A DNA stretch of 64,000 nt, taken from Haplodiscus bocki (lineage: Eukaryota). A program made the translations under genes and the position numbers. The notes beneath the pieces were generated by a model that saw only the letters and a list, made by a program, of their open reading frames with translations, was not told where the DNA came from and did not search any database. The stretch spans positions 24,986,001 through 25,050,000 of the forward strand of contig OZ296656.1 of assembly GCA_965655095.1 (NCBI GenBank), written 5' to 3'. Shown here in pieces: positions 49,864 through 51,010 of this stretch (positions within the stretch are counted from its first letter, which is position 1; every line of letters starts with the position of its first letter).

Positions 49864-50621
49864 CCAAAAAATTGGCTGTTGTTCTCGACTTTTTGTTGTT
49901 CAGGACAGTGAAGTTCTACTTGCATTGGATTTTGAGAACGGTTTTTTTCAGCATTCAAGTATAATTCAGGAACAGTATAATCTTTTGATTTGATAATGCT
50001 CGCTTTATGATACTGTCGCAGCACACCTGCGAGGCATGCGGCCAACCCCTTCCACCAAGAAACACACCCTAATGCTCGAGAAAAAAATCAAACTCTAACT
50101 AGACTCTTAACTAATTACTTCTAAATTTTTTGATTCATTGTACATACATACGGATACGTACTTACTACGTATCCATAACATATGTACAGAAATATAGTGG
50201 TACGTATTTTATACGGAACACTCTACTGAACTGATCCAGACCAGGACGGAACCGTTACGGAACAAACAATTATTCACAGAGCAAATGATCCTTAAAGGTG
50301 CTATTTTTATATTAATCTATTTAATTATTTAGATATTAACACTATAAATCCACCTTTTTGGTACAATTGCAGTAATTATTACCGATAAGTCAGTTTATAG
50401 CAGTGCTTGAATCTCAATTAGTGCTAGAAATAGCGTGACTTATTCGTATTAAATTGACTCTCGGTGTGATTATTTGTTCCGTACGTGTTCCGTCGTCACT
50501 AGTTTGGTGACGTCATTAAGATTACTCTAACTATTCCGTGCTGCAGTGCTTTGGTGAAGACGGAGTGAATCCGTATTCACTCCTAATTTGAGTACGGCTG
50601 ACTGAATTAAGACTAGTGCTT

Positions 50622-50780
50622 CTAGTGGCTACGGAACTGTTCCGGATACCACTAGTAGCGCTGACGGAATTAACTTGTACTACTAGTGGCTACGGAGCTG
50701 TTCCAGATACCACTAGTAGCGCTGACTGCATTAACTTGTACTACTAGTGGCTACGGAACTGTTCCGGATACCACTAGTAG
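50622..50780 (+). repeat. 61-bp palindromic tandem repeat x3 in U3
   Basis: CTAGTGGCTACGGAACTGTTCCGGATACCACTAGTAG at 50622, 50683 and 50744; only 2 copies in the other LTR. Confidence 0.9.
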
Positions 50781-51010
50781 CTACTAGTCGGAAAGAGGAG
50801 TAAATTAGTAGTGATACTATTTTCTCTTCATTTCCAAAAGACTAAAGAATCAAGTGATGATGAGGTGAACATGAAAATGATGAGTAAACATAATGTTTTA
50901 CCAAAGTCATGTATTTTATATTTTATTGTTTTATTTTTTTTTTCACTCATTTTATTTTCCTTTCCCAACTAGGGAAATTAGCATAATAAGACTGTAAACA
51001 ACATGTCGGC

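Follow-up and report, generated by a model that had tools for sequence, protein, structure and literature searches.

Direct motif pairs at 11 bp and a putatively transposase-derived antisense gene in Gypsy-type LTR retrotransposons of Haplodiscus bocki

Motif arrays and their spacing

The window analyzed here is a stretch of 64,000 nucleotides from Haplodiscus bocki (NCBI GenBank assembly GCA_965655095.1, contig OZ296656.1, positions 24,986,001 to 25,050,000 of the forward strand) in which nested long terminal repeat (LTR) retrotransposons, designated A, B, C and D, are found. Paired LTRs and the pol order of protease, reverse transcriptase (RT), RNase H and integrase, as in Ty3/Gypsy elements, are present. 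The main subject is element C, of which the two LTRs are 92-95% alike, and which carries short repeated motifs in its LTRs and a gene on the opposite strand between pol and the 3' LTR. This antisense gene, which encodes a finger protein, is present in C, in A and in a sister family, L006, that was retrieved from a metagenome. In a sequence-only reading of the window made by a model, the motifs were proposed to be binding arrays for a BED-finger protein, with each family having its own motif. All feature coordinates are given in Table 1.

The motifs counted are [AC]CGGA in C (scored as ACGGA/TCCGT/CCGGA, as in the sequence-only reading), CACGT in L006, CGTCA in A and GGTCA in D. Expected counts were taken from 500 dinucleotide shuffles, for which p=0.002 is the floor. 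In the C LTR (50140-50800), 17 hits representing 15 distinct sites were counted, where at least 12 had been claimed. The claimed recurrence of the motif after pol and in an intron of the antisense gene (~60381) was also recovered, with 11 hits or 8 sites at 56860-57140 (1.1 expected, p=0.002) and 4 hits or 3 sites at 60371-60396 (0.3 expected, p=0.002). The A LTR holds 8 CGTCA (1.1 expected, p=0.002) and the D LTR holds 10 GGTCA (1.4 expected, p=0.002) and 7 TGACCA/TGGTCA, in agreement with the at least 7 copies of TGACG/CGTCA in A and of TGACCA/TGGTCA in D reported earlier. After correction for the choice of the best k-mer, CGGAAC in C (p<0.001, also with an internal tandem repeat collapsed), TGACCA in D (p=0.001) and CGTCA in A (p=0.010 in the 5' LTR and 0.029 in the 3' LTR) are still enriched, and no 6-mer of A survives. 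The k-mer comparison per LTR family, proposed earlier as a check, thus gives enrichment over shuffles in all three; it is weaker in A and D than in C, and after correction it is strong in C and D and modest in A. The pol coding region of C is also mildly enriched for the C motif (17 versus 7.9 expected, p=0.006), and none of the four family motifs is enriched in element B. Two C sites, 50535 and 50664, are private to this copy, as they are not in the 3' LTR and another reading is present in ~98-99% of the contig depth. The placement of the C array in U3 is a putative label. Contig depth peaks over the motif blocks, a poor measure that was not used as proof.

Arrays of this kind could be duplication by-products of reverse transcription, or RNA hairpins, without any protein reader. 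A 61-bp tandem repeat contains 6 of the 15 C sites, and the region folds far more strongly than shuffles (z -8.6, 20 shuffles). With the repeat collapsed, however, the enrichment persists (11 sites versus 1.5 expected, p=0.002). Moreover, hairpins cannot be formed from direct pairs, and slippage would not favor one length, whereas 9 of the 10 close direct pairs in the non-coding regions of C lie at 11 bp and the other at 10 bp (0.68 expected). Between families with saturated substitutions, the motif bases persist while the spacers differ. A by-product or hairpin origin is therefore considered very unlikely. Inverted pairs had been put forward as a frequent layout, and one is present in the LTR at 50560-50574, but the direct 11-bp pairs are the stronger pattern.

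The same spacing is found in the other families. Six pairs at 11 bp are present in L006 (palindromic CACGTG counted on both strands), three in the A 5' LTR and 2-3 in D; the A 3' LTR has a single 11-bp pair, which is not significant. In a motif-blind lag test, 26 repeats were obtained at lag 11 in the C and L006 arrays, where the other lags averaged 3.4, and 9 in the A 5' LTR and D together, where they averaged 1.9. In element B, which has no finger gene, 0 lag-11 repeats were found in the LTR and no peak in the interior.

Relatives of the antisense gene were obtained from one metagenome scan with finger-exon alignment, in which 9 of 27 candidate stretches were confirmed (L001-L009). Only L006 among these nine loci reaches both the LTR and the post-pol region. 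Its 11.8 kb contig contains pol, the antisense gene and an LTR, and its finger exon is 62% identical to that of C, with synonymous sites saturated (proportions of synonymous and nonsynonymous differences, pS and pN, of 0.75 and 0.25). The L006 LTR can be aligned with the C LTR and shares its scaffold, and the arrays of L006 occupy the same two locations as those of C, with identical spacing. L006 holds 13 CACGT in the LTR and 6 after pol, versus 1 and 1 in C, and a single C-type site after pol, versus 8 in C. Several pairs are replaced at aligned positions, some after pol and others close to the beginning of the LTR; in the latter region, the two arms of an inverted repeat differ jointly between C and L006. 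The motif has thus changed in two distinct regions, with its location and spacing maintained in each, as would be predicted for a trans-acting reader with a fixed geometry and a changing specificity. The order in L006 (pol, antisense gene, LTR, gag, pol start) points either to tandem copies sharing an LTR or to a family that is young, has open frames and was collapsed in the assembly.

The antisense gene and its proposed function

For the antisense gene, 47 longer homologues, 723 representatives and 1105 middle-exon matches were found, the listed matches being unnamed ENA proteins; no relatives were found in viral contigs or prokaryote genomes. The C and A copies are broken by stops and frameshifts, and the finger exon of C is open. 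In the comparison of nonsynonymous and synonymous substitution (dN/dS), L008 and L009 were excluded for frameshifts, L007 was trimmed to 570 nt, and L002 versus L003 is near-identical and uninformative. The finger exon has a dN/dS of 0.14 between C and L001, and in 26 of 28 pairs a pS of 0.69-0.86 is combined with a pN of 0.15-0.28. The finger exon is under purifying selection.

The finger has the form C-x2-C-x16-H-x5-H in 88 distinct fingers. Its most variable positions are 14, 15 and 24 (2.2-2.8 bits). E16 and R19 show hardly any variation (R19 in 79 of 88), and both residues also occur in the A finger. When counted from the first His, positions 14/15/16/19 correspond to T65/S66/N67/R70 of Hermes, a match by counting only; these Hermes residues contact bases (PMC10368747). 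Together with the 11-bp direct pairs, the L006 motif switch and the purifying selection, this variability at Hermes-contact positions is new over the sequence-only reading.

Based on these data, it is proposed that Gypsy-type elements carry a spliced antisense gene taken from a hAT transposase. In the protein, an acidic N-terminus would be combined with a C2H2 finger of BED-like type, a scaffold resembling that of transposases and a basic tail, and a dimer or oligomer would position two fingers one helical turn apart and bind direct pairs of a short motif at 11 bp. Each family would gather its preferred motif in the LTR, after pol and in the introns of the gene, partly through local duplication, and the protein would act in trans on cognate copies, whose transcription it would most likely activate, over invariant host sites such as TGACGTCA. 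The motif enrichment, the spacing, the switch, the purifying selection and the finger variability are observed, whereas the hAT origin, splicing, expression, oligomerization, binding and activation belong to the proposal. Judged from sequence, the chances are about even that the 11-bp pairs are bound by an oligomeric, element-encoded, transposase-derived protein that regulates its cognate copies, probably by activation. The broader proposition, in which an animal LTR retrotransposon lineage captured and disabled a DNA transposase as its own sequence-specific transactivator and finger and pairs co-diverge by family, is tentative and falls just short of an even chance.

The same sequence evidence would be expected if the protein binds the pairs for a structural task inherited from transposases, such as bridging of LTR and internal regions, nuclear import or targeting of cDNA integration, instead of transcription. 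The whole transposase-like scaffold is retained, and hAT proteins assemble transpososomes using BED arrays (PMC10368747). The sites gather, however, at promoter-like regions and introns and not at the LTR tips, and the acidic N-terminal stretch of L006 (22% D+E, 2% K+R) fits an activator. A structural role is regarded as distinctly improbable.

The antisense gene probably derives from a hAT DNA transposase of which the catalysis has been lost, and its BED/hAT identity is weakly suggested by a ligand pattern and faint likenesses. The BED pattern C-x2-C...H-x3-5-H/C with a recognition helix ending in R-H is found in the antisense finger, but a Pfam profile match is lacking. Atlas features include ZBED5/FAM200 RNase-like clusters (0.76-0.78) and, for the 3' exon, a hAT dimerization cluster (0.80), and the hAT-type leads follow the expected order along the gene. 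In a Foldseek search of 350,542 chains, Hermes was found at ranks 3, 5 and 29 with one predicted model and at ranks 1, 2, 4, 5 and 6 with the other, with E values of 0.05-0.5, below significance. The DDE triad and CxxH of the hAT pattern were not recognizable by eye in alignments, and no confident structural alignment was obtained. No terminal inverted repeats or target duplication were identified around the gene.

Multiple observations weigh against the proposed regulator. A Pfam zf-BED match was obtained in 0 of 43 aligned homologues, with weak C2H2 matches only, the best being a Spin-doc finger in A (E 0.003). No Pfam hAT or PDB profile matched the antisense protein, no hAT was among the top 50 VIA rows, and both predicted models are of low confidence (predicted local distance difference test, pLDDT, 41 and 58). 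The array regions for the lag test were picked after the motifs had been seen, and flanking DNA (10400-15121) also has a weak lag-11 excess, of unrelated words (13 versus 4.3). The post-pol enrichment of A, which is decayed, falls short of significance (2 versus 0.5, p=0.11). C and L006 form the only fully testable combination of finger and array. Solo LTR D was rejected as a protein-motif pair, since it has no linked finger gene; with tblastn, no antisense finger gene was found in B or beside D in the window.

The specificity is also incomplete. Five C-type sites are kept in the L006 LTR (p=0.058), three of them at the core arms, and C retains a TACGTA pair. The sites in the intron that precedes the finger exon are retained in L001 and L009, and in L007 as far as its sequence reaches, and are missing in L002, L004, L005 and L006. 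Residues 14-16 are SPE in L001, EYE in L007 and RYE in L009 versus SSE in C, and therefore residues 14/15 do not correspond one-to-one with the motif. In the intron that follows the finger exon, the pair is of the C type in C, L001, L002, L003 and L007, of which the exons are mostly synonymously saturated, mixed or ACGT-type in L008 and L006, and reduced in L009; no clear pair was found there in L004 and L005. A strict rule of one motif per family was thus rejected, and because sister families hold a few sites of each other's type, the specificity would be biased and not absolute. The LTR starts of A and D are alike at 24 of 26 bases, with the A site at 15141 falling within this start, and their motifs are one base apart, so that motif likeness tracks kinship, which fits co-evolution and also plain descent. 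From the earlier claim of an own BED protein for each family motif, the enriched, family-differing motifs stand; the strict specificity of the C motif and the case of D do not.

Some of these points agree with an explanation in which the arrays are homotypic clusters for host factors, each family being adapted to a different one (bZIP or bHLH in L006 and A, a nuclear receptor in D, and in C a factor that is ETS-like or unknown), and the antisense protein has another role. Three of the four family motifs resemble host sites, namely a half cAMP-response element (CRE), a G-box or hypoxia-response element (HRE) and nuclear-receptor direct repeats (DR4/DR5), which likewise weighs against an element-encoded reader. 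The D pairs can be read as DR4 and DR5 of GGTCA, and the core sites common to C and L006 and the lag-11 excess in flanking DNA also fit host factors. The TGACGTCA palindrome of the C LTR, of CRE type, is likely a host bZIP site. No variation among families is seen in the single TGACGTCA and GACGTGGC sites, either within the LTR or ahead of the antisense gene (in the putative promoter of C, L004 and L006, with TGACGTCA at 61654-61661), which shows that host-type ACGT sites are used. These single sites resemble host sites, and their behavior differs from that of the arrays, which vary. In addition, four different factor classes would need one common 11-bp direct spacing, the motif switches jointly at the LTR and after pol, and B, without a finger gene, has neither motif enrichment nor lag-11 repeats in its LTR. 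Host factors as the readers of the arrays, the strongest of the alternatives, are hence considered rather unlikely.

Comparison with known systems

Element-encoded regulators that act on repeated LTR sites are known from human T-lymphotropic virus (HTLV; Tax on the Tax-responsive element, TRE) and foamy virus (Tas), neither of which is transposase-derived. The specificity of Tax depends on host CREB, and the Tax/TRE comparison made in the sequence-only reading is therefore only a loose one. Among hAT transposases, maize Ac binds AAACGG and A/TCGG. Hermes-type hAT proteins have an N-terminal finger and read short repeats cooperatively (PMC10368747). CGGBP1 is a hAT-derived finger protein missed by Pfam, as such domesticated proteins frequently are, and the motifs bound by its relatives are diverse and often contain CGG (PMC8097297). 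In contrast to both, the carrier here is a retroelement and the catalytic residues are apparently absent by eye.

The system was also compared with VANC anti-silencing, in which an array-bound protein would remove or block DNA methylation. The layout is as in the VANDAL elements, in which the protein is encoded by the element itself and short motifs specific to the family are concentrated in introns and non-coding regions, where they are gained through tandem repeats (PMC5735166), and CpG is present inside three of the four motifs. VANDAL, however, is an Arabidopsis Mutator-like DNA transposon with an unrelated protein that acts on methylation, whereas the present system has an LTR element and fixed 11-bp pairs. 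No VANC-type domain was found in Pfam scans of the antisense protein, which, with its LTR carrier, stands outside the VANC family proper. Between the LTR pairs, no CpG hypermutation was found in C (5/108 CpG versus 30/440 other C/G sites) or A (26/162 versus 108/606), and the observed/expected CpG ratio is 0.84-0.88, B included. CpG decay as a sign of methylation was thus rejected, and the VANC-like comparison of the sequence-only reading gains nothing from it; protection from methylation would give the same picture, which makes this argument weak. Anti-silencing is deemed extremely unlikely.

Spm TnpA is a catalysis-free, transposase-derived regulator that acts on clustered family motifs of cognate copies (bioRxiv 10.64898/2026.08.24.746577). 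It remains in its own DNA transposon family or is recruited by the host, and the text contains 0 mentions of 'LTR' or 'retrotransposon'. As in VANC and TnpA systems, the non-coding DNA of the element is rich in a motif characteristic of the family, with incomplete specificity; by analogy, the system would work like VANC/VANDAL and Spm TnpA while being a member of neither. A conserved antisense open reading frame (ORF) between pol and the 3' LTR has been described for the plant elements Retand, Grande and RIRE2 and the fungal element Boty, with a Transposase_28 domain in Retand, and a regulatory role has been proposed (PMC7264820, PMC6317226). These ORFs differ in their domain, and no cognate arrays are reported in the accessible parts of these sources, whereas the present gene is multi-exon with a zinc finger. 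In the literature searched, in which subscription journals and supplements were poorly covered, no title was found that describes an LTR element in which a hAT-like finger gene is combined with cognate arrays.

No function is known for the antisense extra ORFs of LTR retrotransposons (PMC7264820). Self-encoded sequence-specific regulators have been shown in plant DNA transposons and complex retroviruses. If the proposed regulator is real, one such ORF gains a concrete, testable role, and a transposase would have been 'domesticated' by another mobile element and not by the host. Hundreds of related fingers (the 723 representatives) and their matching arrays would then amount to an extensive natural collection of switches in protein-DNA specificity, from which a recognition code could be read.

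Feature coordinates and further observations

Table 1. Features of the window, with positions counted from its first nucleotide
Feature	Position	Strand	Description
Tandem array, 159-bp unit	1-8037		~50 copies; precedes the nested LTR retrotransposons
Element A 5' LTR	15122..16980	+	8 CGTCA; three GTCA pairs at 11 bp (15604, 15818, 15892)
Element A near pol end, AATGTCAA 11-bp pair	23029..23047	+
Element A antisense gene, finger	25880..26029	-	homologous to C finger, 32% over 50 aa, E 2e-9
Element A 3' LTR	29133..30990	+	83% identity to A 5' LTR
Solo LTR D	32543..34328	+	flanks CTTAC/CCTAC; 10 GGTCA; pairs at 10 and 11 bp; no internal region
C 5' LTR	50014..51819	+	begins TGTCGCAG; matches 3' LTR up to 51508; putative end near 51819
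ACGGA sites 50150 and 50213	50150..50217
TACGTA 11-bp pair 50155/50166	50150..50217		inside inverted repeat; both arms altered in L006 (GGATACGT versus GGGCACGT)
Core arm 1	50245..50286	+	conserved; direct ACGGAAC pair 11 bp apart (50246/50257)
Core arm 2	50453..50494	-	conserved, also in L006; direct pair 50478/50489
Single full TGACGTCA palindrome	50508..50515		identical in C and L006
Inverted pair ACGGA...TCCGT	50560..50574
61-bp tandem repeat	50597..50781	+	3 copies (2 in 3' LTR); 6/15 sites, including ACGGAACTGTTCCGGA
Gag-like ORFs and pol	51417..56837	+	protease, RT, RNase H, integrase; broken in this copy
Post-pol array	56862..57135		8 sites forming four 11-bp direct pairs; CACGT pairs at aligned places in L006
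Antisense gene 3' exons	57228..58632	-	weak hAT C-terminal likeness
Antisense gene middle exon	58978..59606	-	three-strand sheet and helices; weak hAT RNase-H likeness; frameshifted here
Motif pair, intron after finger exon	59656..59671
Finger exon	59678..60333	-	open frame; finger ~60020-60100; putative splice sites from GT/AG and conservation
Three sites, 71-nt intron before finger exon	60371..60396
Conserved block upstream of antisense gene	61540..61700	-	putative promoter; common to C, L004, L006
C 3' LTR	62559..64000	+	cut by window end; carries same array

In the C LTR, the two core arms are in inverted orientation and are separated by 166 bp of AT-rich sequence that contains a TATA-like box, and in related contigs other interiors lie between the two arms. 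A block of ~270 bp at 50990-51260 is strongly conserved between C and L006 and has internal inverted repeats and a TATAAATAGG box, which makes it a candidate promoter or RNA element. The gag-like ORF starts inside the LTR, and its start is hence present in both LTRs (51417-51830 and 63911-64000; about 2270-1870 on the minus strand of L006). After the putative end of the C LTR, no standard TGG primer site was observed. Ahead of the 3' LTR and extending into it, a sense ORF is conserved at 61946-62632 (3591-4325 on the minus strand of L006; 53% between C and L006). The first bases of the LTR encode a C-x2-C of this ORF, which may account for the LTR start being conserved among families.

Outside element C, LTR D sits inside an LTR of the minus-strand element B, in which 38445-38849 (-) weakly matches a Monjiviricetes fusion glycoprotein (E 5e-4), a possible env-like gene. 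The flanking DNA at 10400-15121 contains several ATGACGTCA-like sites. On its minus strand, the 159-bp array has long open frames with a 53-codon unit and is followed by coding-looking DNA to ~10330. Instead of a satellite, it may represent a repetitive exon.
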